Shown: positions 328 through 60,317 of the stretch, piece by piece
Layout: each line of letters starts with the position of its first letter
Position numbering within the stretch: position 1 is the first letter of the stretch
Source of the DNA: a virus
Length of the DNA stretch: 64,000 nucleotides
Reading direction: 5' to 3' (one strand)
Virus record (IMG/VR): IMGVR_UViG_3300014720_000016
Notes under the pieces: model-generated
Seen by the model: only the letters and a program-made list of their open reading frames with translations
Databases searched by the model: none
What the model was told of the DNA's origin: nothing
Made by a program: the position numbers and the translations under genes

Positions 328-834
328 CTATTTGCGCGTTCGTTTATAGAAAGCAGCTGCAATAGCGCTGCCTTTTTCCTTAAGTCCATCTGTGATCAGT
401 ATTGCTGGCACAAGAAACGGGGCGGCTGCAAAGAAAGCAACTACATTCGCCCGTTCCCTTGGATTATGCCAGGCGCCTACCGTCAGAGACCTAGAAGTAC
501 TAGGTTCCATCCAATAGCCTGTTCGAAAAAAGATATTGACTTGCCAGAATATAAACTTAAATGTGCTGTACTTTGAAAGATGGTGAGGTACGAGTGTTCC
601 ATCGGGTCGCGAGTACACGAAGGCACCTTGCTCGGTTACTATATCTACTCTGTATGTTTTCTTTTCAAAGCCATTTCTGCTGTGTGTCTCGTTGACATAA
701 GGAGTTGCCTCAGTGACCATGCCCCTTATCTCAGGAGGCAGAGCCAAGATGGCATGAATTGCCTCTGCAGAATGACCCTCAGCCGCGAGGTCTTCCTCTG
801 TCCCATATCGGAGAATATAGGATTCTAGCTTCAT
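328..834 (-). CDS. hypothetical protein, MKL-start family
   Basis: 168 aa ORF starting MKLESYILR; possible C-terminal TM segment. Confidence 0.7.
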   Translation of the reverse strand: MKLESYILRYGTEEDLAAEGHSAEAIHAILALPPEIRGMVTEATPYVNETHSRNGFEKKTYRVDIVTEQGAFVYSRPDGTLVPHHLSKYSTFKFIFWQVNIFFRTGYWMEPSTSRSLTVGAWHNPRERANVVAFFAAAPFLVPAILITDGLKEKGSAIAAAFYKRTRK

Positions 835-836
835 AT

Positions 837-1388
837 TTATTTTGAAATAATCTTTTCGACATAGCCGAGGCGGGCGAGGCGCTTCTTGTGGCGAGCTAGA
901 TCATAGGCAGTTATGGATTTAGGGTAGAATCTGTTAAGAGCCTTTCCACTCATACCCTCAACATACATCATCGACTTAGCCTTATCAGAAGGCCTGTGAA
1001 CAAGTACGAACTTATAGTTCCCGCTAGCCATCCTCTTTTCGCAGAAAAAGTCAACATGTGGCAGAATATTAACGTGCTTTAGATCGGACTGAATATCATC
1101 AGGCTGGGCCGCCACGGTCTGCTTAACCAGTACAAAGTCCCCGATCTTTGATGGCAGAGCAGGGATAAAGACAGTCTTGTCCATGTCCGTCCAGAAACTC
1201 AGTGTCTTGATTTTTTCAGGCTCAAGGAAGCTGCGACAGATAAGCAGCCCGCAGCGGTTGTTGTTTTCAGCAGTTTTAGTAATCACTTCGTGTAGCTCGA
1301 AAGCGCCGTCCCTTTCAAGACCGATTAGACAGTTCTCTTCGACTTTGTCGGCATCTAGTTCGCCAAAGGTTACGACGCTTCCGTTCAT
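837..1388 (-). CDS. hypothetical protein
   Basis: 183 aa ORF packed in the operon. Confidence 0.7.
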   Translation of the reverse strand: MNGSVVTFGELDADKVEENCLIGLERDGAFELHEVITKTAENNNRCGLLICRSFLEPEKIKTLSFWTDMDKTVFIPALPSKIGDFVLVKQTVAAQPDDIQSDLKHVNILPHVDFFCEKRMASGNYKFVLVHRPSDKAKSMMYVEGMSGKALNRFYPKSITAYDLARHKKRLARLGYVEKIISK

Positions 1389-1389
1389 A

Positions 1390-2085
1390 TCATTCCTCGA
1401 TCTTAAATTCCTGTGGAGGGCCGTTCCACATAGGATTTGCTACGTACATAGCATCGTCTCGGTGGGCGCGATAATGCGTACCGCCTTCCCGGCCAATGTG
1501 ATGCGAGCGTGAGATTCGTGGCTGCAAAACACGCAGACCAGAAGCGATCAGGCCGGTAATGCTAAAATCCCAACCGCGTGCATCGCGTTTCCAAGCTGGC
1601 TCAAAATGCGTCGCCCATTGCTCTTTTGTAATAGCGAAGCCTAGAGCAGAAAATTTAGATCCTGCAAAGGTAGCGGCTGGATCAGCGTCAGCCCGGCTAT
1701 CATGATTATAAAGATTCATGCACAGGAATTCATTGCGCCGTGGGTGATTCAGATACCAGGTAGCTAAACCGACGGCATCGGTGGAGATCACGATATCATC
1801 CTCTAGGTAAAGGACACCATCTACTCCGCTGTTAAATGTGCGCTTTAGCAATTCATAAGGGTTATCTCGAACACCGAGCTGGCGAGAATTTACTACTGCG
1901 TTGCTCTGCATGAAGCTTACGCTTTTGCAAATCTTTATGACTTCTTCATTACCTGGCTCAATACCGAAATTAAGTACATAGTCATCTAGATCGCCGTTCT
2001 TGCTCAGGCTATCTAGCGCAGTCTGTAGATACTTGGGTCGCTTAAAAGCGGTCATAGTCATTGCAAATTTCAAGCTATACTCCAT
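1390..2085 (-). CDS. glycosyltransferase, GT-A fold
   Basis: TAFKRPKYL N-terminus, YLEDD (DxD-like) motif, PRISRSHHIG. Confidence 0.75.
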   Translation of the reverse strand: MEYSLKFAMTMTAFKRPKYLQTALDSLSKNGDLDDYVLNFGIEPGNEEVIKICKSVSFMQSNAVVNSRQLGVRDNPYELLKRTFNSGVDGVLYLEDDIVISTDAVGLATWYLNHPRRNEFLCMNLYNHDSRADADPAATFAGSKFSALGFAITKEQWATHFEPAWKRDARGWDFSITGLIASGLRVLQPRISRSHHIGREGGTHYRAHRDDAMYVANPMWNGPPQEFKIEE

Positions 2086-3166
2086 GCAGGCTGCGGTTTA
2101 TTGCGCTAAATGTACTTTCCTCTGTATAGGTCTCTAGTATTTCCGTGCGCCGGGCTTCTGCTACCTGACACGCATCAGAATAATTATTGAAAACGTATCG
2201 CAGCTTATCTATCGCATCATCCAAGTGAGGTTCGGCCCAGTTCATTTCGGCATTGAAGAACGGCGAAATCTTCGGATTAACGCCGGCAACTGGGGTCATG
2301 TTATGCTTAACCAGAAATGGATAACCAGATCCTAGCCACTCAGCAGGCGCAGACCAGCCAGTGGTAATTACCGGTCTGCCTGCGATAGCTGCCTCCCATG
2401 GCGGCAGACCCCAGCCCTCCCCATGCGTAAGGCTTATGTGGGCGTGCGATGATTCATTTAGCTTGTGAATATCGGCAGTGGAGGAAATCTTTGCCACTAG
2501 TTGAATGTCAGGAGCCCTGCGTAGCTTCATGCCGCCAACAATCCCAGCTATTTCTTTGCTAATGATTGCAGCAGACTCGTTAGCATTAGCAGTAACGTGG
2601 CTTTTTAGTACCAGCTGTACGTCGGGATTGCCGTTAAAAGCGGCACAGAAAGCGCGAACAAGGGCAGATGGATTCTTGCGCTCGCTCCACTGAAACGACG
2701 AAAGAAAGCGGAATTTTCCAGACCTTGGGGCTTGCTTAAGATGCCCAGTGCTTTTCGCAATAGGCATGACAGCGTGCACTGGAACGGTAACGCCAGAACT
2801 GATCATTACCTCTTTGTTCCAGTGAGAAGTGGTCCAGCAGGCATCATACTCGTTAATCTTCTTTGCCCAGCCATCTGGCAAGCGATCAGCTTCAAAAGTA
2901 GTGTAGCCAATATTCCTACTGCTGCCTCTTATCCCGTCCCATAGAATCGGGACCATGTTTATCACAGTGGCATCCGGCGCATCGAATGGCTTGGCAGCGA
3001 GCATTTCCTTGGCTACCTGGCCCATGTCTGCGCTATTGCTCTGTAGTCTTATATCTAAGCAGCCGACATTCCCCGCCCGCCGCAGGGCGGGCCATATCAG
3101 CCGACCCATCTCGGCATAGCCCATGTGGGTAGATATGGGGCTAGCAAAGTTTATATTACTAGCCAT
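2075..3166 (-). CDS. glycosyltransferase family 4 (GT-B)
   Basis: IGYTTFEAD, QWSERKN, HGEGWGLPPWEAAIAGRPVITT (EX7E motif). Confidence 0.85.
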   Translation of the reverse strand: MASNINFASPISTHMGYAEMGRLIWPALRRAGNVGCLDIRLQSNSADMGQVAKEMLAAKPFDAPDATVINMVPILWDGIRGSSRNIGYTTFEADRLPDGWAKKINEYDACWTTSHWNKEVMISSGVTVPVHAVMPIAKSTGHLKQAPRSGKFRFLSSFQWSERKNPSALVRAFCAAFNGNPDVQLVLKSHVTANANESAAIISKEIAGIVGGMKLRRAPDIQLVAKISSTADIHKLNESSHAHISLTHGEGWGLPPWEAAIAGRPVITTGWSAPAEWLGSGYPFLVKHNMTPVAGVNPKISPFFNAEMNWAEPHLDDAIDKLRYVFNNYSDACQVAEARRTEILETYTEESTFSAINRSLHGV

Positions 3167-4550
3167 CAGTGCTAAACCCTTTGCGCTTTACTTTCTTGCT
3201 TACCGTAGCAGGTTTTGCTCGCTTTGTCCTCGTTGCTCTGCGTGGCTTAGGCCCTGCTTCATCAGCCGGATAATCGCCTACGATGGGATCACTTTCTATA
3301 TCCGCAGATTCGGCATCATCCTCGTCTGGATGAAATGCCCGCAAATCATCAAGAATATCCCGGATATTTGAGGTCGGGCGCAGCTTTAGACGAAGGACTA
3401 CTTCCTTGCATTCTGCCGGAGTAAACCTGCGACCAGCCATTGCAGCTTTTACGTCGCTGCTGCTAATCTGGACATCCATGCTCTTGGCGTAAGACTGCAT
3501 GATCTCCAAGCATGAATCGGCGCTAGGCAGCGAGAACTGGAATTTCTCATCAAACCTGCCCGGTCGCAGCAGGGCTTCCCCAAGCTCCTCTGTGTCGTTA
3601 ACTGTGGCGAAGAAGGAAATCTTTGGGTACTTGCGCTTTAGATTTTCCGTAATGTAGAGGAACTTGCCCTCGTATTCGTCAAAGTCTACGCGGTCAAAAT
3701 CATCGAAAAGCACGATCTCGGGCTTAAGAATCGATAGTATCTGCTCAATCTCCTTGTTGTCAACGCTCTCTAGGAATGAGGCATCAACCTTTACCAGCCT
3801 ATTGCCAAATTCTTGCGAGATGCGCTCGCACCAGCTGGTCTTGCCGGTGCCAGGCTTGCCGTACAGCAAAAAGCTGCGGCTAATAGACATGCTCTTGGAA
3901 AGGTTGAGGTATGCAACCATGTCTGCAATAGGATGCGTGGACATGTCAGTATACTGGTTTGAGCCGGGCAGCGCAGAGATCTCTACCTCTACTTTGGAGT
4001 CACCAGAGCTTTTACCATACGAGAGATTGATGCCTGTTGGGTATTTGTTCCAAAAGAAATCGTGGATAAGCGCGTGGTCAAAATCTGGCGATAGCCAGTA
4101 TTGACTTACGATCTCTTCGGGGCTGGCAAAGACATCAAAGCGATCTACTTGTGCAGCCCTGTGAATCCAATACATTTCCGAGTTGTCCGCAACAGTCATG
4201 CGGATCATGCTCATGTTGTCCAGCTTCATAACTGTACCAACAGAGAAGACTGACTCTGCTCCAGACTTAATTAGGAGCTTGTGCAGTTCGCCGTTATGGA
4301 CTTTCAAGTTATGCTTCTCAACATAGAAGTTGATTGGATTCACAAACTCGATATTCAGGGCATCCGCAATTACGTTAGCACCAGCCATAACAGCTGATCC
4401 GATACTAAGCGGGTTGCGATTGTGGGCGAGGCTGGCAGTAATGTTAAGGACTTCCTGCCCCAGAGAAGAGGCCTGCTGAACATAAGGATGCCCGAGAACT
4501 TCGCCGGCCTTCTTCTTAAACTTGTCAAAAAAGCTCTTCTCTGACATCAT
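3159..4550 (-). CDS. AAA+ ATPase
   Basis: Walker A GKPGTGKT, Walker B VLFDDFD, SRH ALLRPGRFD. Confidence 0.9.
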   Translation of the reverse strand: MMSEKSFFDKFKKKAGEVLGHPYVQQASSLGQEVLNITASLAHNRNPLSIGSAVMAGANVIADALNIEFVNPINFYVEKHNLKVHNGELHKLLIKSGAESVFSVGTVMKLDNMSMIRMTVADNSEMYWIHRAAQVDRFDVFASPEEIVSQYWLSPDFDHALIHDFFWNKYPTGINLSYGKSSGDSKVEVEISALPGSNQYTDMSTHPIADMVAYLNLSKSMSISRSFLLYGKPGTGKTSWCERISQEFGNRLVKVDASFLESVDNKEIEQILSILKPEIVLFDDFDRVDFDEYEGKFLYITENLKRKYPKISFFATVNDTEELGEALLRPGRFDEKFQFSLPSADSCLEIMQSYAKSMDVQISSSDVKAAMAGRRFTPAECKEVVLRLKLRPTSNIRDILDDLRAFHPDEDDAESADIESDPIVGDYPADEAGPKPRRATRTKRAKPATVSKKVKRKGFSTDG

Positions 4551-6118
4551 TCCTCCGACTTCACTGCGATCTCGCCACCGATTGCGCCTGATTGCAGAGC
4601 GGCCTTTAGTTTTTCCCAGGCGCCCATCCTGACAGCTTTTGCAAAATACGAGTCAATACTTTCTAGCATAAAACGCAAACTACCATCGAGCACATAGGTG
4701 TGAGCCCAGTCCTTATCTGATCTTACCGCTCGTCCATAGGCTTGTACAAGAGAATTTCTTGTTGCCATTTCATACAGCCCAGGCATAGCGCTATTTAGAG
4801 CTTCCATGTATTCAGACTTTGCCGGGAATGGTACCTTCATAATTACCTGGAAGCGACCCAGATCATCAGCCAAGTCCACGCCCTCCATCATAGATGGGCT
4901 TACTAGTATTGAGTCTGCTTGCTGCTTGTGATGCGCAAGTGCAATGCTTTTATTGGCGCCCTGCTCTACCCAGGTAAACCGGGGATTCTTGCCGTATATT
5001 GTCTGAAGGGCGCTGAAAACCCTGTAGTTAGAAGTGTGAATAATCCCACGCTGATTCCGATGCCGCTGCACAATGGCGTCAAGCAGCTGAATCGCCGGCA
5101 TATCCCTGCCGAATTTTGTAGCGTAATTTATCGTAGGAATATCTTTCGGAAAATAGATCGGCCTGTGCTCAACCGGGAAAGAACTCTCTAGATTGAATTC
5201 GACAGTCTTATCTGGATCTAATCCCAGGATCTTGGCAAAATTAACATCAATCGTAGCCGATAGGAAGTAAATCTTGCGGAATCGCGAAAGAAACTTGTGA
5301 GCCATCGTGGCAGGGTAGATGGGCTTGATCTGGACCTTTTCGTTTTCGGTATCGACATAGAAGTCGCCGGGCAACCGTGCCTCCTGGAGAATGGCGCCTA
5401 CCCGATCAGAGATCTGCTTGCACTGCTCCAGAGTCTTAGAGTCTGAAGACGATTCAGCCCGCATGCCTGCAGCAGTCTTAACCCGCTTGAGCCAATCAAC
5501 GTAGTTTGTTTGATTGGGCAAGTCGCGGATTTTCAGAAGGTTGAAGATTCGTTTTGTGGGAATTTCTAGAGAATAGAAATCCAGAACCTTGTCGATGAAG
5601 TTGTGGGCCTCGTCAAGCACAATAGCGCCGCTCGTAAAGCCGCTAGAGAAAGCCAGATCGTAGTTAAGAATACCGCCAGATGTATGTGGCAGGGCGTACT
5701 TCTTTTTGTAGTATTCGCACTTGTTATTCTTGGCACAGCTCTGCCGCAACTCTGGCGGAGTTTTCTCAGGGATGTCGTACTTAGACTTGGCGATTTGTAA
5801 CAGCTTCCTGCTGGCACAAGGCGCATCTCCGGTAGATCCACCGGAGATCGAACAGCTGTAGTTACTCTTGCCTTTTAGTACAAACTCAGAATTAAATTGG
5901 GAGGTTGAGGCGTACTGATCTTGCAGCAACTTTGTGGCAGTAAGGACGTGGGTATGGTGCTTGCGCGAAAGTGCCACTGCCAGTCCGCTTTTCCCTAGCC
6001 CTGTAGGCGCCCGTATAATGAAGTACTGCTTATCTTCATTCTCATCCAGCTTGTCCAGCAAATCCTCGATACCTGGCCGATAGCTAGGAAACGGGTAGTG
6101 ACTTTTGAGCGGTTCCAT
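4547..6118 (-). CDS. DinG/Rad3-like SF2 helicase
   Basis: APTGLGKS, LKGKSNYSC with Cys cluster, DEAH, LSAT, EGVD, QAYGRAVRS. Confidence 0.9.
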   Translation of the reverse strand: MEPLKSHYPFPSYRPGIEDLLDKLDENEDKQYFIIRAPTGLGKSGLAVALSRKHHTHVLTATKLLQDQYASTSQFNSEFVLKGKSNYSCSISGGSTGDAPCASRKLLQIAKSKYDIPEKTPPELRQSCAKNNKCEYYKKKYALPHTSGGILNYDLAFSSGFTSGAIVLDEAHNFIDKVLDFYSLEIPTKRIFNLLKIRDLPNQTNYVDWLKRVKTAAGMRAESSSDSKTLEQCKQISDRVGAILQEARLPGDFYVDTENEKVQIKPIYPATMAHKFLSRFRKIYFLSATIDVNFAKILGLDPDKTVEFNLESSFPVEHRPIYFPKDIPTINYATKFGRDMPAIQLLDAIVQRHRNQRGIIHTSNYRVFSALQTIYGKNPRFTWVEQGANKSIALAHHKQQADSILVSPSMMEGVDLADDLGRFQVIMKVPFPAKSEYMEALNSAMPGLYEMATRNSLVQAYGRAVRSDKDWAHTYVLDGSLRFMLESIDSYFAKAVRMGAWEKLKAALQSGAIGGEIAVKSEE

Positions 6119-6173
6119 TTGCTTCCTTTTGCGCCACTAGCGCCGCGATAAATAACTGGACAAGCTGGCTGAA

Positions 6174-6680
6174 TCAGATGCCGCTGCTGCCAAAGCCGCC
6201 TGTGCCACGGGTATTGTGCCGGGCCTTGCTTTGGTTATCAAACTCTTCATCAGAAACCCAGAAGCAATCCATCTGCTCTAGGCGCATTGGAATAAGCTGA
6301 CCAACCCGGTCGCCATGGTTGATGGTAATCGTCGCTTCATTTGGCGGAAGATACTTGCCGGCCAACATCATGGCGCCCTCATAACCATTGTCTACTACTC
6401 CTACTAGGCATACTAGATGTAGCTTAGCAAAGGTGCTGCTGCGGGGATTCAGCTGTAGCCACCAGCCCGGGGGCGCAATGGTGCGAATTCCTAGGTCAAT
6501 CTTGAAGGCCTGATCAGGATGCAGGGTGATAGAGCTCGGCTGGCCCTGATCATCTAGGATGCACGCCTTTACGTCATAGCCGGTATCATTAGCGTTCTGC
6601 TTGCTTGGCAGGAAGCTGCCATCAACGTGGTCGCTTAGGACTGAGCGGCAAAAGATAAATTGTGGTACTAGCTGGCTCAA
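6174..6680 (-). CDS. dut: dUTPase (trimeric)
   Basis: GYDV, PRSS, GVVDNGYEG, GDRVGQL, RGTGGFGSSG. Confidence 0.93.
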   Translation of the reverse strand: MSQLVPQFIFCRSVLSDHVDGSFLPSKQNANDTGYDVKACILDDQGQPSSITLHPDQAFKIDLGIRTIAPPGWWLQLNPRSSTFAKLHLVCLVGVVDNGYEGAMMLAGKYLPPNEATITINHGDRVGQLIPMRLEQMDCFWVSDEEFDNQSKARHNTRGTGGFGSSGI

Positions 6681-7138
6681 ATCAAACTCCTATCTAACAT
6701 CATGGTGAAATACAAAACGCTGCTGTTGTCGTAAAATGAGTTATGGCCTACTAGATTGCCTAGGACAACTACGCTCGCCCCATCTAGTGTGCCCAGGCGA
6801 ATAGAGTCGAATGCATCTTGTACTGGAGATAGCCTTAGCAGCTTGCCTTCATCAGTGCGAAGCCAGCATGTATGTTTTCTGCTTGCGCCTTCGCCATGGC
6901 TGTGAACTTCGACCTTGCCAAGATATGCTCGGGCAAGCTTGGGCTCGGACTCTGAGTTCCAATGATCAAATGCTTCTTTCGAGCCGTATAGTGGGCAAGC
7001 GGGATCATGCCACAGGTGTTTCTCGTAAACATCTTCTTCGCTTAGTGGCGCGTTCCACGTATCCTTGCTGCACAGATCGCAGCAAATAGCCATGTCGGCT
7101 ACGTATAGCCATCGGCTTAGATATTTTACATTTAGCAT
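6677..7138 (-). CDS. hypothetical protein (Cys/His-containing)
   Basis: 153 aa ORF with CDLC and HDPACP. Confidence 0.6.
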   Translation of the reverse strand: MLNVKYLSRWLYVADMAICCDLCSKDTWNAPLSEEDVYEKHLWHDPACPLYGSKEAFDHWNSESEPKLARAYLGKVEVHSHGEGASRKHTCWLRTDEGKLLRLSPVQDAFDSIRLGTLDGASVVVLGNLVGHNSFYDNSSVLYFTMMLDRSLI

Positions 7139-7153
7139 GTTTTTAATTCTGTG

Positions 7154-7492
7154 TCACTCTGGTGCGTCGAACGGATCAACCCAGGTGTCATTCTCGTAAA
7201 AGGTATTCTTCATCTTCTCGTCGCCTACAAGATTCTGAAGAGTGTTGACATCGCCATTAACCATTTCTGTGCCGATCTTTTCGTAAGTGCGCATTACAGC
7301 TGGATCGATCTCATGCTCCATGATCTCTTCCATGGTCTGGTAGTTGACGTGTGTATTAAATGTGCCGATCTTCCGCGTATAGCCTTCTACTTCTCCGCAG
7401 CGGGCACAGGACAGGGACCGTTTGCCATCTGGGTTAAAGTAGTGCTTCTTCTTGAAACCGCACTTTTCGCAAGCATATAGGAACTGTGGCAT
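7154..7492 (-). CDS. FmdB-like zinc-ribbon protein
   Basis: MPQFLYACEKCG...CARCG. Confidence 0.7.
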   Translation of the reverse strand: MPQFLYACEKCGFKKKHYFNPDGKRSLSCARCGEVEGYTRKIGTFNTHVNYQTMEEIMEHEIDPAVMRTYEKIGTEMVNGDVNTLQNLVGDEKMKNTFYENDTWVDPFDAPE

Positions 7493-7683
7493 TAGGCATC
7501 CTCGTCTGGAAGTTCTGCTTCTAGTCGCTCTCCAATTAAATTGAGGGCGATATCTTCTCTGCCGGCTACCCGGAGTGCAAAGTCCTTGTACTTGTTATCA
7601 AATACTTCAAACTTTAGAAACACTTTGTCTGATTCTTTGTCCCATTCGACGCAGACGAGACTCGCAATCTGTACGTTCTTCAT
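7492..7683 (-). CDS. hypothetical protein
   Basis: Likely start MKNVQ at 7683 (ATGA overlap). Confidence 0.6.
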   Translation of the reverse strand: MKNVQIASLVCVEWDKESDKVFLKFEVFDNKYKDFALRVAGREDIALNLIGERLEAELPDEDA

Positions 7684-8054
7684 TCTTCGTCCTCTGGCAA
7701 ATCTGGCAGTACATTGCGCAGTGCGCAAAACAGCCGGCAACTAACTCGCTCTTTAATTTCTTTTACAAGAGGATCAGCTATGAGATCCATATCAGACACG
7801 AGAATTTCTGACAAGAAGTCTATTACCGAATCGCGAACATCCTCTATCGAGGAATGCTGGTTAACATTCAGGTGAAGCAGCCAGCTTAGTTTTGAATTGC
7901 TGTCCTTTTCCAGACACGAAGTGGGGCCAGAGCTGCCAACCCTTACGCTAAACCGCAACAGGGGGTCGATTACAAGCACCCCGCGATAAGCGTCTAGGTA
8001 GGTGTTGGCTATATTTATAATGTCCGCTTCGCTTAGCATCTTCGCTCCTGCCAT
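7680..8054 (-). CDS. hypothetical protein
   Basis: 124 aa; ATG lies 8 nt after the GATCC of the repeat element. Confidence 0.65.
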   Translation of the reverse strand: MAGAKMLSEADIINIANTYLDAYRGVLVIDPLLRFSVRVGSSGPTSCLEKDSNSKLSWLLHLNVNQHSSIEDVRDSVIDFLSEILVSDMDLIADPLVKEIKERVSCRLFCALRNVLPDLPEDEE

Positions 8055-8062
8055 GCACCACC

Positions 8063-8095
8063 GGATCGGGGCAACCCGGCTTTAGGCCAGGCCCG
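8063..8095 (-). promoter_or_regulatory. CCTAAA-N13-GATCC intergenic element, copy 1
   Basis: + strand ggatc-ggggcaacccggc-tttaggccaggcccg. Confidence 0.75.
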
Positions 8096-8333
8096 TGCTG
8101 CCTGGTGCCTGTCGAAACTCAACCTCTGGACGCAGCCTCTCTACAAGGGCCTGCAAGTACTCTCTTTTCTTATCCATCATCAGCGCCTTGTTCAGGTGTG
8201 CGCGAACAGCCTCGATCTGCTCCGCAGAAGGGATCGGCTTGGCTGCCTTGCCCGTGCCCTGTGTCCAGCCATCTGGAGCTACTGCATTGGCAATGGTACG
8301 GAATTCTTTTTCGCTTAGTCCCAGGTAGTTCAT
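8082..8333 (-). CDS. hypothetical protein
   Basis: 83 aa; its stop codon is the TAA of the element's TAAA. Confidence 0.6.
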   Translation of the reverse strand: MNYLGLSEKEFRTIANAVAPDGWTQGTGKAAKPIPSAEQIEAVRAHLNKALMMDKKREYLQALVERLRPEVEFRQAPGSTGLA

Positions 8334-9202
8334 CGCTTATCCTTTCCAAGTTTCATTCGCGGAATCCTCTTCTGGAGGCCACCCTGGTAGCCAAAGAAGT
8401 AGCGGTACATTCGACGCTGGATAGCCATGCCAGCATGGCTAAGGCAGATGTCCGAAATCCGGCTGGCTACTGCGGGTGACTGCTCGGCAAGGGCAGCCTG
8501 AGACATGTAGAAGAGGACTCGAGGCGTAAGCATATCTCGAAATTCAGAGTCGAAATAGTTCTTGTTGTGTTCGCATCCGATATAGGGAATGACAGGATCG
8601 CTGTGCCAGAACTGGCCAAGATTTAGCAGGGATAGGCGAAGAGCCTCAAGAAACGCCACGTTTGCTAGGTCAACGGCGAGGACCGCTCCGCGCTTTGCTT
8701 TTTCAAGGTCAGCGCATACGACGGCTAGCAGATCAGGGATATTGCCTGAGTCAGAAACCGTGTCTGCTGCTGGTGGAACCACTCCGCACAGATAATCTTC
8801 CATGCTGGAGTTGCCTTCTTCGCCGCCATTGCCAGCGGAAGATTTTTCTACGATATCGGCGATATAGCGCGTTCGCTTGCGGGATGAATACTCGCGATTG
8901 AGATCATTCTTGAAGGAAATCTTCAGATAAGACTTGAATACTTTTAGAAAATCAATATCTGCGTCGGCGACTTCGACAAGCCCCTTGATAGTCTCGTCCG
9001 CTAGCTGCTTCGTATGGAGCACCCCGTCATCAAACTTCTTGGAGATAAAGAAAGCTTTGGCCTGCCATTCGTCTACGCACGCCCGCGCATCAGGCACCCG
9101 GTAGCCAAGGGCAATCTTGATCAGGGCTGGTCGGATAGATTCGAAGATGTTTGGAATCTCTTCCGCCAAGCGGATGCCGTTGTTCTTTGAGCTTACTGTC
9201 AT
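8330..9202 (-). CDS. putative sigma70-region-2-like transcription factor
   Basis: IRPALIKIALGY...DE...FKSYLKISFKNDLNREYSSRKR resembles ECF/sigma region 2.1-2.4; no clear region 4. Confidence 0.4.
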   Translation of the reverse strand: MTVSSKNNGIRLAEEIPNIFESIRPALIKIALGYRVPDARACVDEWQAKAFFISKKFDDGVLHTKQLADETIKGLVEVADADIDFLKVFKSYLKISFKNDLNREYSSRKRTRYIADIVEKSSAGNGGEEGNSSMEDYLCGVVPPAADTVSDSGNIPDLLAVVCADLEKAKRGAVLAVDLANVAFLEALRLSLLNLGQFWHSDPVIPYIGCEHNKNYFDSEFRDMLTPRVLFYMSQAALAEQSPAVASRISDICLSHAGMAIQRRMYRYFFGYQGGLQKRIPRMKLGKDKR

Positions 9203-9441
9203 TTTTCCTCATTCATTTTAACTGATTTCAGATAGAAGTTAATAATTCCTTCTTCTAGAAAGGCATCATCGGAGCCTCGAGTAATAGCGGATTTCCTGCT
9301 GGCGAGCGCAGACACCACTTCTTCATCAGAAGCAGCGAGCGCTACTAGCTCAGCTAGTGACTGCACTATGGCCGCACTCCTGAGCGCATGATTTTTGGCA
9401 AACCCGGCGTCAGCGGCAATAGTCTGTTTTAGTTCGCTCAC
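9199..9441 (-). CDS. hypothetical protein
   Basis: 80 aa, overlap-coupled. Confidence 0.6.
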   Translation of the reverse strand: MSELKQTIAADAGFAKNHALRSAAIVQSLAELVALAASDEEVVSALASRKSAITRGSDDAFLEEGIINFYLKSVKMNEEK

Positions 9442-9737
9442 ACCAAGCCGCCTTCCCGCAAATCATCCAGCACGCCGCTTACCTTTAACGCTGCGTCCGT
9501 TCCGCCATCTTCTATAACGCAGCCTTGCGCCTCCATCCAAAGGAAGGCATATTCTGCCGCCAGCAGCGCATCGGTAGTCGCCTGCAGTGTGTTTGCCAGT
9601 GACGCAATTAGCGAGGCTTGCTGGATATTACCGGATTGCAACGGCACCGAGCCGCCATTTGCATCTGTTATGCGAGCCTGGCTGCCATCAGATACAGCAT
9701 TCCACGGCAGTGGGTGATTTACGAAAATTCCCATCAT
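9438..9737 (-). CDS. hypothetical protein
   Basis: 99 aa with HPLPW motif. Confidence 0.6.
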
Positions 9738-9982
9738 TTTGCGTGCCGGTATACGATCCTACCCTTGGTAAGGTCGTAAGGGCTAACCTCTACGTCTACC
9801 GTATCTCCTAGGGTAATCATGATTGAGTTCTTGCGTAGCTTGCCGCCAGGATAAGCGGTGATACTAAATTGGCTATCCCCGTGCTTAACGTCAACGAAAA
9901 TGATCGAGTTGTTGACGTTTGTTACGGTTCCTGTTAGGCGTACTTTATCGCTATTGCTATTGTCCATTGATCTCTCTTTCAT
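9734..9982 (-). CDS. infA: translation initiation factor IF-1
   Basis: [33 protein letters not shown] is the IF-1 signature. Confidence 0.93.
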
Positions 9983-10335
9983 ACGAAAATCTTGTTATTT
10001 ACAAGCCTGGCAAAGCTAGCGGCTGTGATTGGTTCCGCGTTTTCTGCCAGACAAAAGCAGTCCATTTTATACGGGTTGTAGCTGACTTGCCGGCTAGCCG
10101 CGGGGGCGCTGCCGGTAACGGTACCCACTACAAAGGCGTGTACATTCTTCCTCTTCTCTGCCAACACCTTTAGCCGGCCCGCTTGGCGAACAACAAATTG
10201 GACATTTGCCAGCTCGATGCTCGCCACCAGGGCAATTACTAGCCCGGTTTTGCAGCACTGTACAGAGAAATTGCCGGTGTGCAGGTTTCTATAAACCCGA
10301 ACTCGGGTGCCAGGCTGTACGGGGTCAGTCGTCAT
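9979..10335 (-). CDS. conserved phage hypothetical protein
   Basis: [26 protein letters not shown]; start adjusted to MTTDP. Confidence 0.7.
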
Positions 10336-10672
10336 GGATTTCCTCGGCTGTAATTTCATCACTATCGCCTTCGGAGTCTGAATCATCCTCCGAGGATTCT
10401 TCTGGCAGGGAAGCGAAATACTGATCTAGCAGCTCTACCGCTCGCAGGAATTTTTTTGCATGCTGTACGGTATTGGGGGTAAATACCGAGTGCAGAGGGT
10501 TTAGCCCGTTTTCACCGCCATCGTCTTGTTCGAGGAGTCTGGCAAAATTAATGATATCAAACCCAGGATCCGATACTTGACGAATAATTCCCTCAAGCAG
10601 GATCTTTTTGCTCAATTCTTTAGCAGAGGAGTAAAGAGTCAGCTCTTCTTTGTCATCTAACTTGTTTTCCAT
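10325..10672 (-). CDS. hypothetical protein with acidic tail
   Basis: 115 aa ORF. Confidence 0.65.
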   Translation of the reverse strand: MENKLDDKEELTLYSSAKELSKKILLEGIIRQVSDPGFDIINFARLLEQDDGGENGLNPLHSVFTPNTVQHAKKFLRAVELLDQYFASLPEESSEDDSDSEGDSDEITAEEIHDD

Positions 10673-10683
10673 AATGAGGCCCT

Positions 10684-10977
10684 ATGTTGAATTTTAAACT
10701 GTTTGTCAAAGCCGATGATGAAGCTGCCGCTCCGGCACCCGAGGCTCCTGCTGATTTACCGCTTGCTGATCCTGCCGCAGAAGCTGGTTTACCGCCCGAC
10801 ATGGCAGCTGGGATGCCGCCTATGCCACCTGGAGCTGCTGTACCTGAGGTGCCAGAGAAAGATCCTATCGAGGCGATCAGGGCTCGTTTAAAGGGAGCGC
10901 TTGGCAAAGAGGCAGAAGATGAAGATCTGGATATTGCATCTGAAGACGTAACTGAAAGCGGGGTTTTCAACGGTTAG
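10684..10977 (+). CDS. Pro/Ala/acidic low-complexity protein (opposite strand)
   Basis: GAGG SD; starts MLNFKLFVKA. Confidence 0.65.
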   Translation: MLNFKLFVKADDEAAAPAPEAPADLPLADPAAEAGLPPDMAAGMPPMPPGAAVPEVPEKDPIEAIRARLKGALGKEAEDEDLDIASEDVTESGVFNG

Positions 10978-11389
10978 AAATCTCCTCCTGGCACATTTTT
11001 AGCAGCCGACTGAGCACCGGAATACGGTGCTCTGTTTTTTGCTCCGCGACATGCAGCATCCCGATGCCGGCGCTTTTCAGCATGTCAAGTGCATTACTTA
11101 CTGCTTGATTTTCTAGTAAGCCTTCGATTGCAGGCGACCGCATGGCCAACTGGCCAGTAAGGGCCGGAGTGGTTATCAGTAGCCGGGCCACGTCACGCAG
11201 AACCTGCTCATTCTCTAGCGAGATATCACTAAGTAGCGCCGCGATTCGCTGCGCGTCCTCTCTCATGCTTGCAGGAGGTTCCTCGTCCGCAGACTCAAGA
11301 GCAGCAACAATACGCGGGAGAGGAAACTCTTTCATAAGGGCATATGCAATCTTCAAACTCACGACTTTCGTTCCTTTATCATTTGCCAA
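10967..11389 (-). CDS. hypothetical protein
   Basis: 140 aa ORF. Confidence 0.65.
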   Translation of the reverse strand: MANDKGTKVVSLKIAYALMKEFPLPRIVAALESADEEPPASMREDAQRIAALLSDISLENEQVLRDVARLLITTPALTGQLAMRSPAIEGLLENQAVSNALDMLKSAGIGMLHVAEQKTEHRIPVLSRLLKMCQEEISNR

Positions 11390-34043: not shown

Positions 34044-34053
34044 TGCTACTCCG

Positions 34054-47378: not shown

Positions 47379-47383
47379 TGCTT

Positions 47384-47542: not shown

Positions 47543-47549
47543 CGACGCG

Positions 47550-47888: not shown

Positions 47889-48061
47889 TGGAATATGGTG
47901 AAGTATTCAATGACGCGCTGTACAATCCTACCGGCTCAGTATAAAGACCCTTGCACTCAGTCCATGAACCCAGCTCTGCGCTTTCTGTGGCCAGGGGAAT
48001 GTCCTCGAAACCAACCACAACTTCGTCGATACAAAACAACATGGGTTTTCTCCTCTTAGAT

Positions 48062-48457: not shown

Positions 48458-48530
48458 ACCGCTACTCCTTGCCTGCAAGCAGTGGCTTGCAGCTTGCCTT
48501 GCAGCCGGTAGCGGCGCGGTACGCCGCTGT

Positions 48531-48811: not shown

Positions 48812-49105
48812 TTCTTAGGTCCATAAATTATGATCTGTCTTTTATAAAGAGTATGGTGAGCCAGCTCTTTTGAAGTATTTGCTAGCCTCCACTGCCAAGT
48901 AACCCAGCCGTCATGTGATATTTTGTATGTGGTAAGGCTATAGCCTATACAGATAGCAACCTCTTCCCATCCATCCATCCGGCAGTAGCTTGATTTCGTA
49001 TTGCCTGTCTATCTCTATGTTAAACTGGCTCTCTACGAGTCCGAGGATTGCTTCTGAATCATTTTCCCTGAAAGCGGATCGGGCGACGAACCAATCTAGC
49101 TTCAT
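48808..49105 (-). pseudogene. frameshifted MKL-family gene (extra 4-bp unit in a GGAT repeat)
   Basis: MKLDWFVAR...; removing one ATGG at ~48967-48980 restores a 97-aa ORF with ATGA overlaps at both ends. Confidence 0.7.
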
Positions 49106-51916: not shown

Positions 51917-52228
51917 CTAATCAGTTACTATGATATAGTTTCTATAGGAAAAGCTGGAGTTTTCAAGTCGAGGAGGTCCGCCGCTCCGAGTGAAACGGTA
52001 GTGCAGGCTATCTGTCCAGTTTACGGGAATGTATATCGACCACTCATTGCAAAGCATGATTGTTTTAATTATCACAGATTCATTTTTCTCTGTATAAAAT
52101 TTCCAAGGAGCAGAAGGCAATCGAGCACCATAGTCTCTTCCAATAAGAGTTGCTACCCTGTCTCGTAGGGCTTCGGCATTACCCTCTTGCCATGCGAACC
52201 AAAGATCTACGCTGGCATCAAGTTTCAT
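51917..52228 (-). CDS. hypothetical protein, MKL-start family
   Basis: MKLDASVDLW. Confidence 0.6.
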   Translation of the reverse strand: MKLDASVDLWFAWQEGNAEALRDRVATLIGRDYGARLPSAPWKFYTEKNESVIIKTIMLCNEWSIYIPVNWTDSLHYRFTRSGGPPRLENSSFSYRNYIIVTD

Positions 52229-52671
52229 TTGCTGCCTTGTTTAGCATTTGCTTCGTAAGCAGATAGTCGAAGCATATAGGCTTCGTGCTGTTTCCGATAA
52301 TACTCTTGCACGTCTAGCTGCGTCATCAGCTGCTTGCTGAGCACATCAAGAACATAAGCCAACGATATGTTTCTTGGAACTGCTTTTTGTTTTTCTGCTT
52401 TTGGATCACTGACTACGATATGAAAAGAAAAAATCTTACCAGAGTACAAGAACTCATTCTTGCGAGGCCATATGCGTGCGACGCCGGCCCGTGGAACGTG
52501 GACACTGTGTATATTTAGCCCGTGGATATTGTAAGATACAATCTTTCGTGTTAGGATGCTCAGATCTCTTTTGTGCAGAAAAGGAATTACTTCGGGAGCA
52601 GAAGCTGCCAGGATCGCTTCTGCTTCCGCGCAAGTATATGCGTAGTTAAGGGCGATATCGAGAAGCTTCAT
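52225..52671 (-). CDS. hypothetical protein, MKL-start family
   Basis: MKLLDIALN. Confidence 0.65.
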   Translation of the reverse strand: MKLLDIALNYAYTCAEAEAILAASAPEVIPFLHKRDLSILTRKIVSYNIHGLNIHSVHVPRAGVARIWPRKNEFLYSGKIFSFHIVVSDPKAEKQKAVPRNISLAYVLDVLSKQLMTQLDVQEYYRKQHEAYMLRLSAYEANAKQGSK

Positions 52672-53135: not shown

Positions 53136-53348
53136 TTACTTGATAGCAGTAAAATCCCAGTTATATGCAAAATCTTTAACAAAGCCTATTTTAACTAATC
53201 TGGCTTCTAGCTCAGTCAGTCTATTCCCGGCAGTATCAGGCTTTAACCACAACGTAATTTTTGGGCGTTCCTCGTAAGAGGTGGCAGATAGACCAGAGTT
53301 TATCCTGACGACATCCTCTGCGCAAACAGGGAAAGAAATCTGAGACAA
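53136..53348 (-). CDS. hypothetical protein
   Basis: 70 aa ORF. Confidence 0.5.
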   Translation of the reverse strand: MSQISFPVCAEDVVRINSGLSATSYEERPKITLWLKPDTAGNRLTELEARLVKIGFVKDFAYNWDFTAIK

Positions 53349-53351
53349 ACC

Positions 53352-53564
53352 CTAGGATGCGCTAAGCCCACCTCGGTTGATCTTTAATATCGACACGAGC
53401 CCAACATGATCAAACCAGACACCTAGTGTTTGGACTTCTTCCGTGTCCATGAGAACCTGAAAATCTTCTCTGGATGGAATATTTAGATTTCTTACTTTCT
53501 TAAACCACAGGAGCAGATCATATGCATCTTTGCAGAACATTATCTCTAAAGAGGCAAGCTTCAT
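53352..53564 (-). CDS. hypothetical protein, MKL-start family
   Basis: MKLASLEIM. Confidence 0.6.
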   Translation of the reverse strand: MKLASLEIMFCKDAYDLLLWFKKVRNLNIPSREDFQVLMDTEEVQTLGVWFDHVGLVSILKINRGGLSAS

Positions 53565-54737: not shown

Positions 54738-55043
54738 TCAGGCCTCAGGGTGACATTCAATTACGAGTGGATGACCGGCAGAACGTGCTCTGATTATTGC
54801 TTTCTCAGTCTTGGTCTCTGCAATATCTCGAGTGTATGTGCCGACTACGCCGGCCCCTTTCTGGTGGACGGCTAGAGTGATAGAGGTAGCTTCTGTAGCC
54901 CCCTTTTTAAAAATGGTGGTTAGAATATCTACGACAAACTCCATCGGAGTAAAGTCGTCATTCATTATGATAACCTTAAACATGCGGGGCGGATCGTTGC
55001 CAATCTTTGATCGCGTGTCCTTTAGCGTATCATTATCACTCAT
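54738..55043 (-). CDS. clpS: ClpAP adaptor ClpS
   Basis: PPRMFKVIIMNDDFTPMEFVV..L..IF, VHQKGAGVVGTYTRDIAETK, GHPL. Confidence 0.95.
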   Translation of the reverse strand: MSDNDTLKDTRSKIGNDPPRMFKVIIMNDDFTPMEFVVDILTTIFKKGATEATSITLAVHQKGAGVVGTYTRDIAETKTEKAIIRARSAGHPLVIECHPEA

Positions 55044-57061: not shown

Positions 57062-57433
57062 CTAGCTCGTAGATGACGAGCCGCCATCTTTGTTAGGAGA
57101 TAGAGCAGGATTCACAATGAACTGTGATCTTGTTATGTTCCCTAGCTCATCAAAATGAATGATTGCAGGCCCATCGGTGCGGTGGCACTTGCCATTCACG
57201 TAGTACTCAAGAGCGCGAACCGTTCCGTTAGGCCAGAACCACGCAGCAGCAGGCCCATGCGTATTCGTTATAAAACCAGTATTAGTTCGCCAGTGAGCAG
57301 ACTGTATAGTGCCGCGCTCTTTGTAAACAACTAGATATGCGCCCTCTTTGGCAGAGTACAGCCTTCCCCAATCCGGGTTCCATACCGCATCAGGAGGCCC
57401 GCTTGCTAGGAATTCCAAGAATGCAAGTTTCAT
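57062..57433 (-). CDS. MKL-start protein with HRxDGPA repeats
   Basis: MKLAFLEFL; HGPAA, HRTDGPAII. Confidence 0.65.
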   Translation of the reverse strand: MKLAFLEFLASGPPDAVWNPDWGRLYSAKEGAYLVVYKERGTIQSAHWRTNTGFITNTHGPAAAWFWPNGTVRALEYYVNGKCHRTDGPAIIHFDELGNITRSQFIVNPALSPNKDGGSSSTS

Positions 57434-57475
57434 AAATTACTGTAAGCCTTACTACTAAAAGGCCTGGAGAAATAC

Positions 57476-57760
57476 ATGATAAAGAAACTTGCAGAAATCG
57501 CAAATGAACTGGATGCAGCTGGCGAGATGGCTGCGGCGGACAGGGTAGACGCCATAATCGACAACCTACGCCAAGCAGCTGCCGGCGACATGAAGCGTCA
57601 CCCCGATTGGGTGGCGGCAGCCAGCCGGGCCTTACCAATGCTGGATTCAGCGATGGATTGTTTTACCGACAAGAATGTCACCCCTCCGGGCGATCTAGTA
57701 TGGGCAATCGAAGATCTCCGCAAGATTGTGGAGTTCAATAAAAAGAACCCCGCTAAGTAG
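57476..57760 (+). CDS. hypothetical protein with LAxxANExDxxG...AD.VD motif (opposite strand)
   Basis: GGAG SD; paralogous N-terminus with 31393..31983. Confidence 0.7.
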   Translation: MIKKLAEIANELDAAGEMAAADRVDAIIDNLRQAAAGDMKRHPDWVAAASRALPMLDSAMDCFTDKNVTPPGDLVWAIEDLRKIVEFNKKNPAK

Positions 57761-58031
57761 ATTTTTTGATTGCAGCTTCTGCAAGCTGTACGGCATCGCA
57801 GTAGATGCCAAAGCCTCGAGAATCGGACTCGGCACTAAGTCGGTTCGACTCAAGCAGCGCACGACAAGCATCTAGAGCCGTATCGCGTTGCCTGCGCATT
57901 ACGCAGAGGCCGCAAGGTCGATCTGCTGCACACTCATAGGTAAGCTCACCCGGACCAGCTACCGCGCAACCACCGATCTCAATCTGCCACATTAGGGCCT
58001 GGTAGGCCGCCTTCCAGTCTTTGTCTCTCAC
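57753..58031 (-). CDS. hypothetical protein
   Basis: 92 aa with Cys motifs. Confidence 0.55.
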   Translation of the reverse strand: MRDKDWKAAYQALMWQIEIGGCAVAGPGELTYECAADRPCGLCVMRRQRDTALDACRALLESNRLSAESDSRGFGIYCDAVQLAEAAIKKST

Positions 58032-58042
58032 AAGATCAGTAC

Positions 58043-58579: not shown

Positions 58580-58584
58580 CGGGA

Positions 58585-58845
58585 CTACCTCACAACAAAT
58601 GCGTAGTTACCAGGAGGATACCCGGCTGGTGGGTGGGAGCGATGGTTCCATACTCCATCGCACCAATAATTCCATGACTCATGACCTTTGACTATTGAGA
58701 TGCACAACCAATCGCTACTTATCTCTGGATTAGCAGTTATCCTCTCAGGTGGCTCAATCCCAATTTCTCGCGAAACTATTCGTACTACCTCGCGCCAATC
58801 GCGCGAGGCGGCAGCAGATTGCAAAGCCCAGTCATGGAGTTTCAT
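58585..58845 (-). CDS. hypothetical protein, MKL-start family
   Basis: MKLHDWALQ. Confidence 0.6.
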   Translation of the reverse strand: MKLHDWALQSAAASRDWREVVRIVSREIGIEPPERITANPEISSDWLCISIVKGHESWNYWCDGVWNHRSHPPAGYPPGNYAFVVR

Positions 58846-58878
58846 TATTTGCCTGCATCATTACAGCAGGCTAGATCG

Positions 58879-59355
58879 TCAACTTCCTAGCTGAGCTTCT
58901 AGTTCAGCAGTGCGCTTGCGTAGGCGCTCAAGTTCATCTAGAGCATCTTTGTGCCGCTTAGCTTCCTCTGCCTGCTTGCGCTCTACGTCAGCCTTCTGCT
59001 GGCGCGCTAGCTTGTTTGTAAGCTGGCGCCGGAACAAAGGGCGACTAGGAAACGGAGGAGTTACGAAAACTTCATTATCATACAGCGTATTACCATTAAA
59101 CACAAACGCAGTATAGTTGACATCGCCCCGGCATTGTACGCGAAAGATAACTTCAGGGAATGCCTTGGATAGTGCAAGGGTCACACTGTGGCCTCCCGAC
59201 CACTTTGTTTCCGGGCTAAAGCGCCGCCAGCACCATGCAACGAAATTGCCGTCCTGCCTAAAATCAGTAAGCGCATTAGCTTCTGCCGCAATCTGCGCTT
59301 CAAGGGTTGGATTCGAATCGGCAATGTCAATGCAAAAAGAGTAATAACTTCCCAT
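58879..59355 (-). CDS. hypothetical protein
   Basis: MGSYYSF...KW...LSKAFPEVIF...GD; coiled-coil tail. Confidence 0.65.
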   Translation of the reverse strand: MGSYYSFCIDIADSNPTLEAQIAAEANALTDFRQDGNFVAWCWRRFSPETKWSGGHSVTLALSKAFPEVIFRVQCRGDVNYTAFVFNGNTLYDNEVFVTPPFPSRPLFRRQLTNKLARQQKADVERKQAEEAKRHKDALDELERLRKRTAELEAQLGS

Positions 59356-59813
59356 TATTTTTCCTCGGCTTTTGCAGCCTTTGTGTTATAACCTGACAGT
59401 AGGGCGAAGCCCTCGTGACGGGTCCATGTAACAGATGATGGCAGTCCGTATAGCGCCTCGGCTTCGCATCGCCCACAGCTAGCCGCGACTGCGGTACAGT
59501 CGCCAGAATGATGCGCGGATAGTTGCAGCTTGTGATGCGACACGAAGGCGCTAAATCCTCCCGGCCAAAGCGCATCCCAGCAATCGCCGTATTCATGCGT
59601 ATCACTAAATAGTTTCTTCATAAGGCCGGCTACAATTCCCTCGTAGCGCACCTGAGCATCTCGCGCACTAGCGGAGCCAAGCCCACCCTTTAGATGCATA
59701 TCAGCAGTAAGCAGCCGGTCATGAACAATGTATTCCAAGCACCAGCGATAATATGCAGCTCTATGAGCGTCCTCACTAATGTCCGCTGGCGGTGGGCATA
59801 TGTCGTGGCTCAT
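59355..59813 (-). CDS. hypothetical protein
   Basis: HSGDCT...CGRC motif. Confidence 0.6.
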   Translation of the reverse strand: MSHDICPPPADISEDAHRAAYYRWCLEYIVHDRLLTADMHLKGGLGSASARDAQVRYEGIVAGLMKKLFSDTHEYGDCWDALWPGGFSAFVSHHKLQLSAHHSGDCTAVAASCGRCEAEALYGLPSSVTWTRHEGFALLSGYNTKAAKAEEK

Positions 59814-59930
59814 GTATCACCTTGGTTTTCGCACGGATTCTGCCATGGTAGCCATGGCTATCGCAATAATCCAAAAAGGAGCACTGAGGATAAAAGCAGC
59901 AAAGATAATAGCTATTTCCAAGTACTTTTC

Positions 59931-60317
59931 CTAGGTTAAGTGATTCTTGTATACACAATAGCCGCTTGAGAGCGAGCTTCTTGCAAAACCAGCGGCCTCT
60001 GCCGCAGCTATTGCCTCTAGAGCCCCTGCGCTCGCAGGCATATTAAAATTAAGATAAATGGCACCTAACAAACTAGGTGCATCCCACTCGGTATCGCCAC
60101 CCATAGCAGAAATACCATCTTCTGAAACACCAAGCCTGTATATCATGAAGGCGCGCCGCGACACCCACTCTATCAGCAGGCTGTCCTCGCGAGCGAGTTG
60201 CAGCAGCATGTTAAATGGCACCCCGCATATTTCCTTAGGAACCGGCAAACCATAATCTGCAATTGATGCGCGGATATACTCATCGCTACCGGCCCACCAG
60301 ACATTTGCTAATTTCAT
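59931..60317 (-). CDS. hypothetical protein, MKL-start family
   Basis: Start MKLANVWW at an ATGA overlap. Confidence 0.6.
   Translation of the reverse strand: MKLANVWWAGSDEYIRASIADYGLPVPKEICGVPFNMLLQLAREDSLLIEWVSRRAFMIYRLGVSEDGISAMGGDTEWDAPSLLGAIYLNFNMPASAGALEAIAAAEAAGFARSSLSSGYCVYKNHLT

Follow-up and report, generated by a model that had tools for sequence, protein, structure and literature searches.

Why should eighteen small genes of one virus all encode proteins that begin with the same three residues? The question arose from an initial annotation of a 64,000-nucleotide stretch of DNA, hereafter the window, from the IMG/VR virus record IMGVR_UViG_3300014720_000016. Eighteen short genes, described as unrelated to one another, were listed there whose products start with Met-Lys-Leu (MKL), and this start was taken for a docking or targeting module shared by variable effector domains. 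The window comes from a huge phage, and its genes include rIIA-like, gyrase/topoisomerase, RNA ligase, ClpS, IF1-like and trigger-factor-like ones.

The window was compared with its own JGI contig, with close relatives from Logan and with one complete relative. The JGI contig (3300013132 Ga0172372_10000119; 115,740 bp) holds the exact window proteins; the DNA just beyond the window on the same contig is referred to as L005, the close relatives are L001–L004 and L006, and L050 comes from another sample. The complete relative, G001 (IMGVR_UViG_3300035212_003113; 371,675 bp, with direct terminal repeats), was reached via a metallophosphatase anchor. A DNA-level search of the phage collection gave no near match to the window.

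Met-Lys-Leu starts in the window and in a complete relative

All eighteen genes, named here by the coordinate of their start, were read as start-Lys-Leu on the minus strand, which dominates coding in the window (116 of 124 greedy open reading frames, ORFs). The start codon is ATG in 16 of them, GTG in 47888 and TTG in 48457. Fourteen use the first start codon after the in-frame stop, and 52228 likewise uses the first start of its own ORF. The internal start candidates are 48457, 49105 and 60317, for which metagenome gene calls give the same lengths (131, 55 and 128 amino acids, aa); these calls come from JGI for 48457 and 49105, on the window's own contig, and from both JGI and Logan for 60317. 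JGI lengths also match those listed initially for 53564, 52671, 52228, 47888, 47378, 46155, 44438, 40996, 29884, 26094 and 22342, and altogether metagenome gene calls agree with 14 of the 18 starts, the three internal ones included. The size range first reported, 70–170 aa, holds for the set apart from 49105, with its 55 aa. A start at 10359, within ORF 9979–10386, was left uncounted; JGI calls a 118-aa product with a different start there.

The MKL start proved to be enriched over chance more strongly than had been stated. Among 117 longest-ORF starts in the window, Leu3 is found in 15 of the 28 genes with Lys2 vs. 4 of the 89 without it (Fisher 3e-8), and about 3 of 360 truly internal in-frame ATG codons (about 0.8%) are followed by Lys-Leu. 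The frequency of the MKL start is 1.9% (9 of 481 ORFs) across 18 unrelated viral loci, where the commonest tripeptide start is MKK (3.3%). An overlap of start and stop codons in the form ATGA favours a second codon beginning with A and was considered as a cause of the MKL start. As the initial annotation had argued for Leu3, ATGA overlaps do not account for the pattern, because Leu3 still follows in 6 of the 10 Lys2 genes that overlap in this way. The eighteen proteins are also rich in aromatic residues, as had been noted (11.2% vs. 8.3% in other small window proteins; p 0.002), and the statement that no recognizable enzyme gene starts in this way was confirmed, the MKL start being absent among window genes with a Pfam family. 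Searches of the eighteen proteins against Pfam and PHROGs found no family.

In G001, M-K-L starts lie no more than 40 codons from the ORF 5' end in 92 of approximately 520 greedy ORFs, and Lys-Leu follows 9 of 3754 internal start-type codons. A credible set of 88 plus-strand genes encoding at least 55 aa was retained, 34 belonging to a family described below as family A and 54 to other groups. All 88 proteins are 65–203 aa long, and the MKL start is absent from all 137 G001 proteins that exceed 205 aa (Fisher 2e-17). Their aromatic content is 12.7% and 11.4%, compared to 8.2% in other small proteins (p 6e-17), and their median isoelectric point (pI) of about 6 is the same as that of other small proteins. 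The MKL genes of G001 lie at 0–120 kb and 320–340 kb, with nearly none in the gene-sparse region of 120–320 kb; MKL genes also crowd L005 and the relatives L001–L004 and L006. Clustering by sequence sorted the 88 proteins into about 42 groups, some of them joined by a few weak edges, and single-linkage clustering linked 40 of the proteins.

The eighteen window genes are a local sample of a small-protein class that is specific to this phage clade and has some 90 genes in each genome. The proteins of the class measure 55–203 aa and are aromatic-rich, and their genes occupy the accessory arms of a 372-kb phage. Pfam searches of 52 G001 MKL proteins outside family A returned only DUF6745 (8 proteins) and MORN_2 (1 protein), in what we call family B. 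The first 11 kb past the terminal repeat of G001 (484–11484) hold at least 8 paralogues that start with MKLDxWEAISS and carry MORN-like 'HREDGPA' repeats, with DUF6745/MORN_2 matches.

Purifying selection on the first residues

From the varied codons at the eighteen starts, the initial annotation had argued for selection on the protein and not for a DNA repeat, and the comparison with G001 bears this out. Over 12 window–G001 orthologue pairs (20–66% identity), Lys2 and Leu3 are identical in 24 of 24 cases, compared to an identity of 43% at positions 4–13 and 36% in the remainder (P about 2e-9 for Lys2/Leu3). The same pairs differ synonymously at codon 2 in 6 of 12 cases and at codon 3 in 9 of 12, CTN/TTA changes included. 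Lys2 is encoded by AAG in 13 and AAA in 5 of the window genes, vs. 64/36 in gene bodies; in G001 the figures are 58 and 34, which is the bulk ratio. Five kinds of Leu codon are used at Leu3 in the window and six in G001, where CTG accounts for 33%. In the window, only 1 of the 18 Leu codons at codon 3 ends in G; no such avoidance was seen in G001, and the point was discarded.

We also looked for a nucleotide-level start signal, whether a DNA repeat or an RNA motif, and found the synonymous sites unconserved. Shine-Dalgarno (SD) sequences, compared on the basis of JGI start calls, have a duplex energy of −4.65 in MKL genes vs. −4.82 in other genes and a motif frequency of 50% vs. 59%, differences that are not significant. 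Compensation for the SD sequence was rejected as an explanation of MKL, SD strength being the same as in other genes. At the protein level, G001 contains MRL once and MKL 92 times, though AGR makes up 22% of Arg codons. Among 115 family A representatives with at most 50% mutual identity, Lys2 is found in 100% and Leu3 in 96%, the rest having Ile, and core positions in the family A alignment swap L, I, V, M and F freely.

Since the orthologues change their codons synonymously, keep Lys2 and Leu3 constant and have ordinary SD sequences, selection acts on the residues. We conclude that purifying selection on amino acids keeps the first residues Met-Lys-Leu, and that a DNA or translation signal fails to account for the pattern.

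This conclusion bears on a possible effect on translation, in which AUG-AAR-CUN, or nascent formyl-Met-Lys-Leu (fMet-Lys-Leu), would aid the initiation or early elongation of coupled small genes, perhaps with the assistance of the IF1-like protein. Such an effect would be consistent with Lys being the commonest second residue in general, with 14 of the 18 genes overlapping the upstream stop or sitting at most 5 nt from it, with the scarcity of G-ending codons at codon 3 in the window and with the presence of an IF1/eIF-1A-like protein in the phage. It is, however, difficult to square with the synonymous variation of codons 2 and 3 between orthologues, with the bulk codon usage and frequent CTG of G001 and with an SD strength no different from that of other genes. 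Further, no long gene uses MKL, including the long ORFs of the 120–320 kb stretch, and Val, Met and Phe, whose codons have the same U at the second position, are nearly absent at residue 3. We consider this explanation improbable. The IF1/eIF-1A-like protein has 82 aa and is encoded at window 9734–9982 (minus strand; PF01176, E 2e-11).

Families, predicted folds and possible readers of the N-terminus

For most of the eighteen proteins, the description as unrelated stands. All-against-all BLASTP and phmmer comparisons among them yielded few links, and the description fails for 58845 and 49105, which both belong to family A, and for 46155, 48457 and 60317, which are weakly related to one another by phmmer and HHalign. 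Family A was seeded with members from the flanking DNA and extended by a profile search over 1.84 billion representatives. This gave 210 matches, and 123 of the best 150 are small proteins aligned from residue 1. These 123, which are clusters at 50% identity, start with MKL in 109 cases and with MKI in 5, and most of the others have the same start inside a mis-called N-terminus. Family A proteins combine a constant N-terminal helical hairpin of about 33 residues with a hypervariable body, and their motifs are D16-W17, H27-F28-G29 and Y-x-W-x4-G-F. For this family, the proposed constant module on variable domains was recovered.

When MKL was removed from the family A hidden Markov model (HMM), it detected only 2 of the 18 proteins (58845 and 49105), with 47378 borderline and the other 15 undetected. 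HHalign comparisons of orthologue profiles stripped of MKL showed no general excess, with a median score of 11.6 for MKL–MKL pairs vs. 11.0 for MKL–non-MKL pairs. Beyond MKL, the non-A proteins share a pattern of acidic residues at positions 4–5 and hydrophobic ones at 6 and 8; position 4 is acidic in 36–38% of proteins, and position 5 is hydrophobic in only 0–27%. With acidic residues at 4–5, the first helix is amphipathic and not the hydrophobic helix originally described. At the level of sequence comparison, the class resolves into one very large family (A) and about 40 clusters without detectable sequence relation to it.

Several observations concern the history of family A. Giant Ig/PKD-repeat proteins (P0006, P0007, P0015 and others; 1,100–5,100 aa) match it only at positions 54–85, the Y-x-W-x4-G-F hairpin, which is probably motif-level similarity and not homology. 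In P0022, a database protein of 128 aa, an MKL fragment consisting of the N-terminal module only continues, by read-through, into a whole family A unit, a layout that suggests decay and fusion within arrays. The order and content of family A genes near the M16 peptidase gene differ among close strains (L001 1–4500 compared to L002, L005 and L006), and an orthologue of 58845 is present in L002; none turned up in L001. The window ORF at 57753–58031 (minus strand, GTG start), whose product begins with RDKDWKAAYQAL, matches positions 12–24 of the family A profile and may be an N-terminally truncated family A relic.

Structures were predicted for one family A protein and one non-A protein. The AlphaFold model of 58845, from a 113-sequence alignment, has a predicted local distance difference test score (pLDDT) of 85 and consists of helices at 3–13 and 17–28 followed by five strands. 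The model of 22342 (non-A), from 11 sequences, has a pLDDT of 72, with helices at 3–18 and 21–32 followed by strands and a C-terminal helix. In both, helix 1 opens at Leu3 and pairs with the second helix ahead of a variable β-rich body. A search with both models in PDB and BFVD found no convincing fold match.

Our preferred reading, which we hold tentatively and rate at somewhat less than an even chance, is that Lys2-Leu3 and the amphipathic first turns serve all members as an element for recognition or docking. This element would have survived repeated duplication, and the variable bodies would be the working parts. A single common partner, of phage or host origin, would read the N-terminal element in sorting, packaging, processing or chaperoning, and the bodies, as they diversify, would take on different targets. 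The shared N-terminus would have spread as a small ancestral gene was duplicated again and again, and its retention would probably be due to function. It is possible, if rather doubtful, that MKL and the first helical turns are an address label for about 90 fast-evolving effectors per genome, read by a dedicated phage or host machine. Candidates for such a machine would be capsid loading for co-injection, or a protease or chaperone, e.g., the M16 peptidase, the MoxR/DUF2201 pairs or the trigger-factor-like protein.

The genes for these candidate proteins were located as follows. Two gene pairs, each consisting of a MoxR-type AAA gene and a DUF2201 (metallopeptidase/VWA-like) gene, and an M16 peptidase gene lie within or adjoin the MKL arrays (L005 2446–6954; window 32715–35328, minus strand), and the M16 peptidase gene itself has an MKI start. 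The trigger-factor-like protein (447 aa; window 36889–38232, minus strand) matches the Trigger_N ribosome-binding domain (E 5e-12). A faint FtsH-like match was found in the same arms as the MKL genes.

The main alternative, which needs no external reader, is common descent combined with fold constraint, in which all members would derive from one ancestral α-α-β gene, Leu3 would pack into the core and Lys2 would cap helix 1. In line with this, the genes are arrayed in tandem and family A has very many members; small size and aromatic richness are common to A and non-A proteins; the A and non-A models share the order of elements, with helix 1 starting from residue 3, and both place the helices within the domain with confidence. 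Weak in-register profile links also exist, from 53564 and 47378 to family A and along the 46155–48457–60317 chain, besides the 40 single-linked G001 proteins. This is in contrast with the results obtained after MKL was stripped, where profiles scored no better between MKL proteins than between MKL and non-MKL proteins and the family A HMM found 2 of 18. Further, residue 2 is seldom a structural determinant, yet Lys is 100% conserved there and Arg is excluded; Leu3 varies far less than the true core positions in the family A alignment; and in at least one type of member the body differs, being made of MORN-like repeats. We regard descent and fold alone as an unlikely, though not a far-fetched, explanation.

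Several points nevertheless weigh against the docking element that we favour. The N-terminal helices were modelled within a folded domain (pLDDT about 79–93), unlike a floppy peptide, and a structural role fits equally well. Given the common α-α-β layout of the models and the weak profile links, all members may have one ancient fold with Leu3 as a core residue. The structural evidence consists of two models, one of them of moderate confidence. Finally, AGR may be avoided at codon 2 because an SD-like GAGG would arise at the start.

As an analogy, packaging of the kind directed by the capsid-targeting sequence (CTS) of phage T4 is the closest known, and it had been offered at the outset as one meaning of the MKL start. 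The N-terminus would then send the small proteins into the prohead for injection as ready-made counter-defence. T4 internal proteins are diverse defence inhibitors sharing only the 10-residue N-terminal CTS, of which residues 8 and 10 are needed for processing (PMC3012670, PMC9026906). Like IPI, IPII, IPIII and the CTS-bearing T-even ORFs, MKL proteins are small, diverse and fast-evolving and have a short N-terminal sequence in common, with M-K-L invariant and a pattern extending to about residue 9 over some 42 clusters. Family A often has [M/I]8-x-E10, resembling the T4 processing residues, and the phage carries an rIIA-like gene. However, a T4-type (L/I)-x-E processing site near residue 10 is not general: (L/I/M)-x-E was found in only 51% of family A proteins and 17% of the remaining MKL proteins, other small proteins giving a background of 10%, and a T4-type cleavage site was not upheld as a trait of the class.

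Unlike the CTS, which is a near-identical decapeptide, the MKL class shares three residues and a physico-chemical pattern. It also differs from the T4 internal proteins in comprising about 90 genes per genome vs. a handful, and so many different cargo proteins would be unprecedented, and in its proteins not being basic, as their pI indicates. The genes lie in arms with DNA-metabolism genes, not among structural genes. A search of G001 with PF03420, the gp21-type T4 prohead protease, gave no match, control genomes being equally silent. Overall, capsid targeting has little likelihood in our judgement.

A degron had also been suggested, with reference to ClpX N-motif 2 and to SspB and ClpS genes in the window. 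With regard to the genes, the ClpS part stood and the SspB part found no support. The ClpS gene lies at window 54738–55043 (minus strand), amid MKL genes, and is kept in G001 (75167–75403), where a second, weaker ClpS-like stretch was detected at 65210–65356 inside a 279-aa ORF. The phage ClpS carries the residues NDD-T-PM-H, which we take to be the usual pocket of E. coli ClpS. The SspB family has no match on record among window genes, and a search of G001 with PF04386 (SspB) gave none either, with positive controls.

According to this explanation, the N-terminus would mark the proteins for timed destruction via ClpS/ClpAP or ClpXP, whether as it stands or once Met-Lys had been removed and Leu3 exposed as an N-degron. 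The ClpS gene among the MKL genes, with its counterpart in G001, fits such a scheme, as do the M16 peptidase, the MoxR-type AAA and DUF2201 partners and the faint FtsH-like match in the same arms. ClpX N-motif 2 (NH2-Met-basic-φ-φ-φ-x5-φ) resembles the MKL start in being Met-basic-hydrophobic, but it requires hydrophobic residues at 3–5 and positions 4–5 are acidic or polar here, and the identification was dropped. The ClpS pocket recognizes Leu, Phe, Tyr or Trp at the N-terminus. MKL proteins are encoded with Met-Lys there, and Lys2 blocks methionine aminopeptidase and so prevents removal of Met1, which differs from ClpS N-degrons despite the nearby ClpS gene; the processing is hypothetical, and the proteins were not accepted as ClpS substrates. 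Acidic residues directly after Leu3 would also be poor for ClpS binding, and G001 yielded no SspB. We judge a degron highly improbable.

Two further comparisons were made with known systems. Like multigene families of jumbo phages and large DNA viruses, MKL genes form tandem arrays, diverge rapidly, keep an N-terminal module more conserved and vary in content among strains. Unlike those families, the MKL start spans about 40 sequence-unlinked clusters, and residues 2 and 3 are the most conserved. F-box adaptors, another option raised initially, resemble family A in having a constant N-terminal helical module and a variable body. They differ from the non-A members, which share only about nine N-terminal residues, and this option found no backing in the Pfam searches, which gave no match to an F-box family in the 18 proteins or in the 52 G001 non-A MKL proteins; no Skp1-like hub was identified. 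No earlier description of a class defined by its start came to light in a literature search, which was aimed at paralogue families of hypervariable small proteins in huge phages and returned nothing relevant. The MKL class stands out by its scale and by its fixed residues 2 and 3; the themes, CTS-type shared N-termini and virus multigene families, are known.

The individual genes and the meaning of the class

The genes are described below in the order of their coordinates, all on the minus strand. Gene 834 (328–834; 168 aa, MKLESYILRY...) uses the first start of its ORF and belongs to no Pfam or PHROG family; its G001 orthologue, g130278, has 29% identity and an MKL start. Gene 16162 (15743–16162; 139 aa) overlaps its upstream gene through ATGA and is uncalled in L050, and its G001 orthologue, g116698, also starts with MKL (30% identity). 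The structurally modelled gene 22342 occupies 21947–22342 (131 aa, in agreement with JGI). Gene 26094 (25768–26094; 108 aa, also in JGI) has a G001 orthologue with 66% identity and an MKL start, and 29884 (29555–29884; 109 aa, also in JGI), just upstream of the rIIA-like gene, has one that starts with MKLWLAELI. Gene 40996 (40541–40996; 151 aa, JGI likewise) matches a G001 orthologue with 25% identity and an MKL start. For 44438 (44004–44438; 144 aa, JGI likewise), which has an ATGA overlap, no G001 homologue was found.

Gene 46155 (45703–46155; 150 aa) is weak kin of 48457 via a SICVGW motif (phmmer E 0.075; HHalign 53% without MKL), and in G001 its orthologue starts with MKL and a paralogue with MKI. 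Gene 47378 (47058–47378; 106 aa) has a borderline family-A-like N-terminal module, matched by the family A HMM in register (E 0.36–1.8; HHalign 6.7%), and an MKL-starting G001 orthologue. The GTG-initiated 47888 (47550–47888; 112 aa, also in JGI) uses the first start of its ORF and has an orthologue in G001 beginning GTG-AAG-CTG, with 52% identity. The TTG-initiated 48457 (48062–48457; 131 aa in JGI) is internal in ORF 48062–48478 and is kin of 60317 (phmmer E 8e-4) and of 46155, with HHalign values of 31% and 53%. Gene 49105 (48938–49105; 55 aa, also in JGI) is a truncated family A member consisting of the N-terminal module only, detected at residues 6–40 by the HMM without MKL (E 1e-5 to 3e-5).

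Gene 52228 (51917–52228; 103 aa, as in JGI) has an ATGA overlap and a G001 orthologue with 37% identity and an MKL start. Both of the two G001 homologues of 52671 (52225–52671; 148 aa, as in JGI) start with MKL, and an ESM Atlas search with this protein gave no usable match. At 53136–53564, the window has two 70-aa ORFs where relatives have one ORF of 142–143 aa (L001 18962–19390; G001 g78101). Gene 53564 (53352–53564; 70 aa) is the 5' half of this split gene, which is intact in relatives, and aligns in register with family A (HHalign 30%); the 3' half lies at 53136–53348, and its best G001 match, g78101, is a homologue of 53352–53564 too.

Gene 57433 (57062–57433; 123 aa) has a body of MORN-like repeats, matches MKL family B and other MKL genes of G001, and is a paralogue of the ORF at 62825–63115 (E 3e-9). 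The latter is a probable variant member with an ORF start of MAMKM, in which the internal MKM aligns by eye with the MKL of its homologues; the best of these in G001, g61928, starts with MKL. Gene 58845 (58585–58845; 86 aa), one of the two proteins modelled, is a clear family A member by the HMM without MKL (E 7e-8 to 2e-9). Gene 60317 (59931–60317; 128 aa in Logan and JGI), kin of 48457 at the phmmer E-value given above, has an ATGA overlap and is internal in ORF 59931–60389.

Small genes without a known function number in the hundreds in huge phages, and here a simple criterion, backed by selection, brings about 17% of one clade's genes together in a single class. The MKL class points to a step common to all its proteins. 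A reader of the tag, if there is one, would provide a handle on phage takeover or counter-defence proteins, and the tag would be a portable signal comparable to the T4 CTS. Should the address label prove true, no larger repertoire of tag-defined effectors would have been described in a phage; should all members have one ancient fold, they would represent an extreme divergence of paralogues, past sequence recognition, with residues 2 and 3 fixed.

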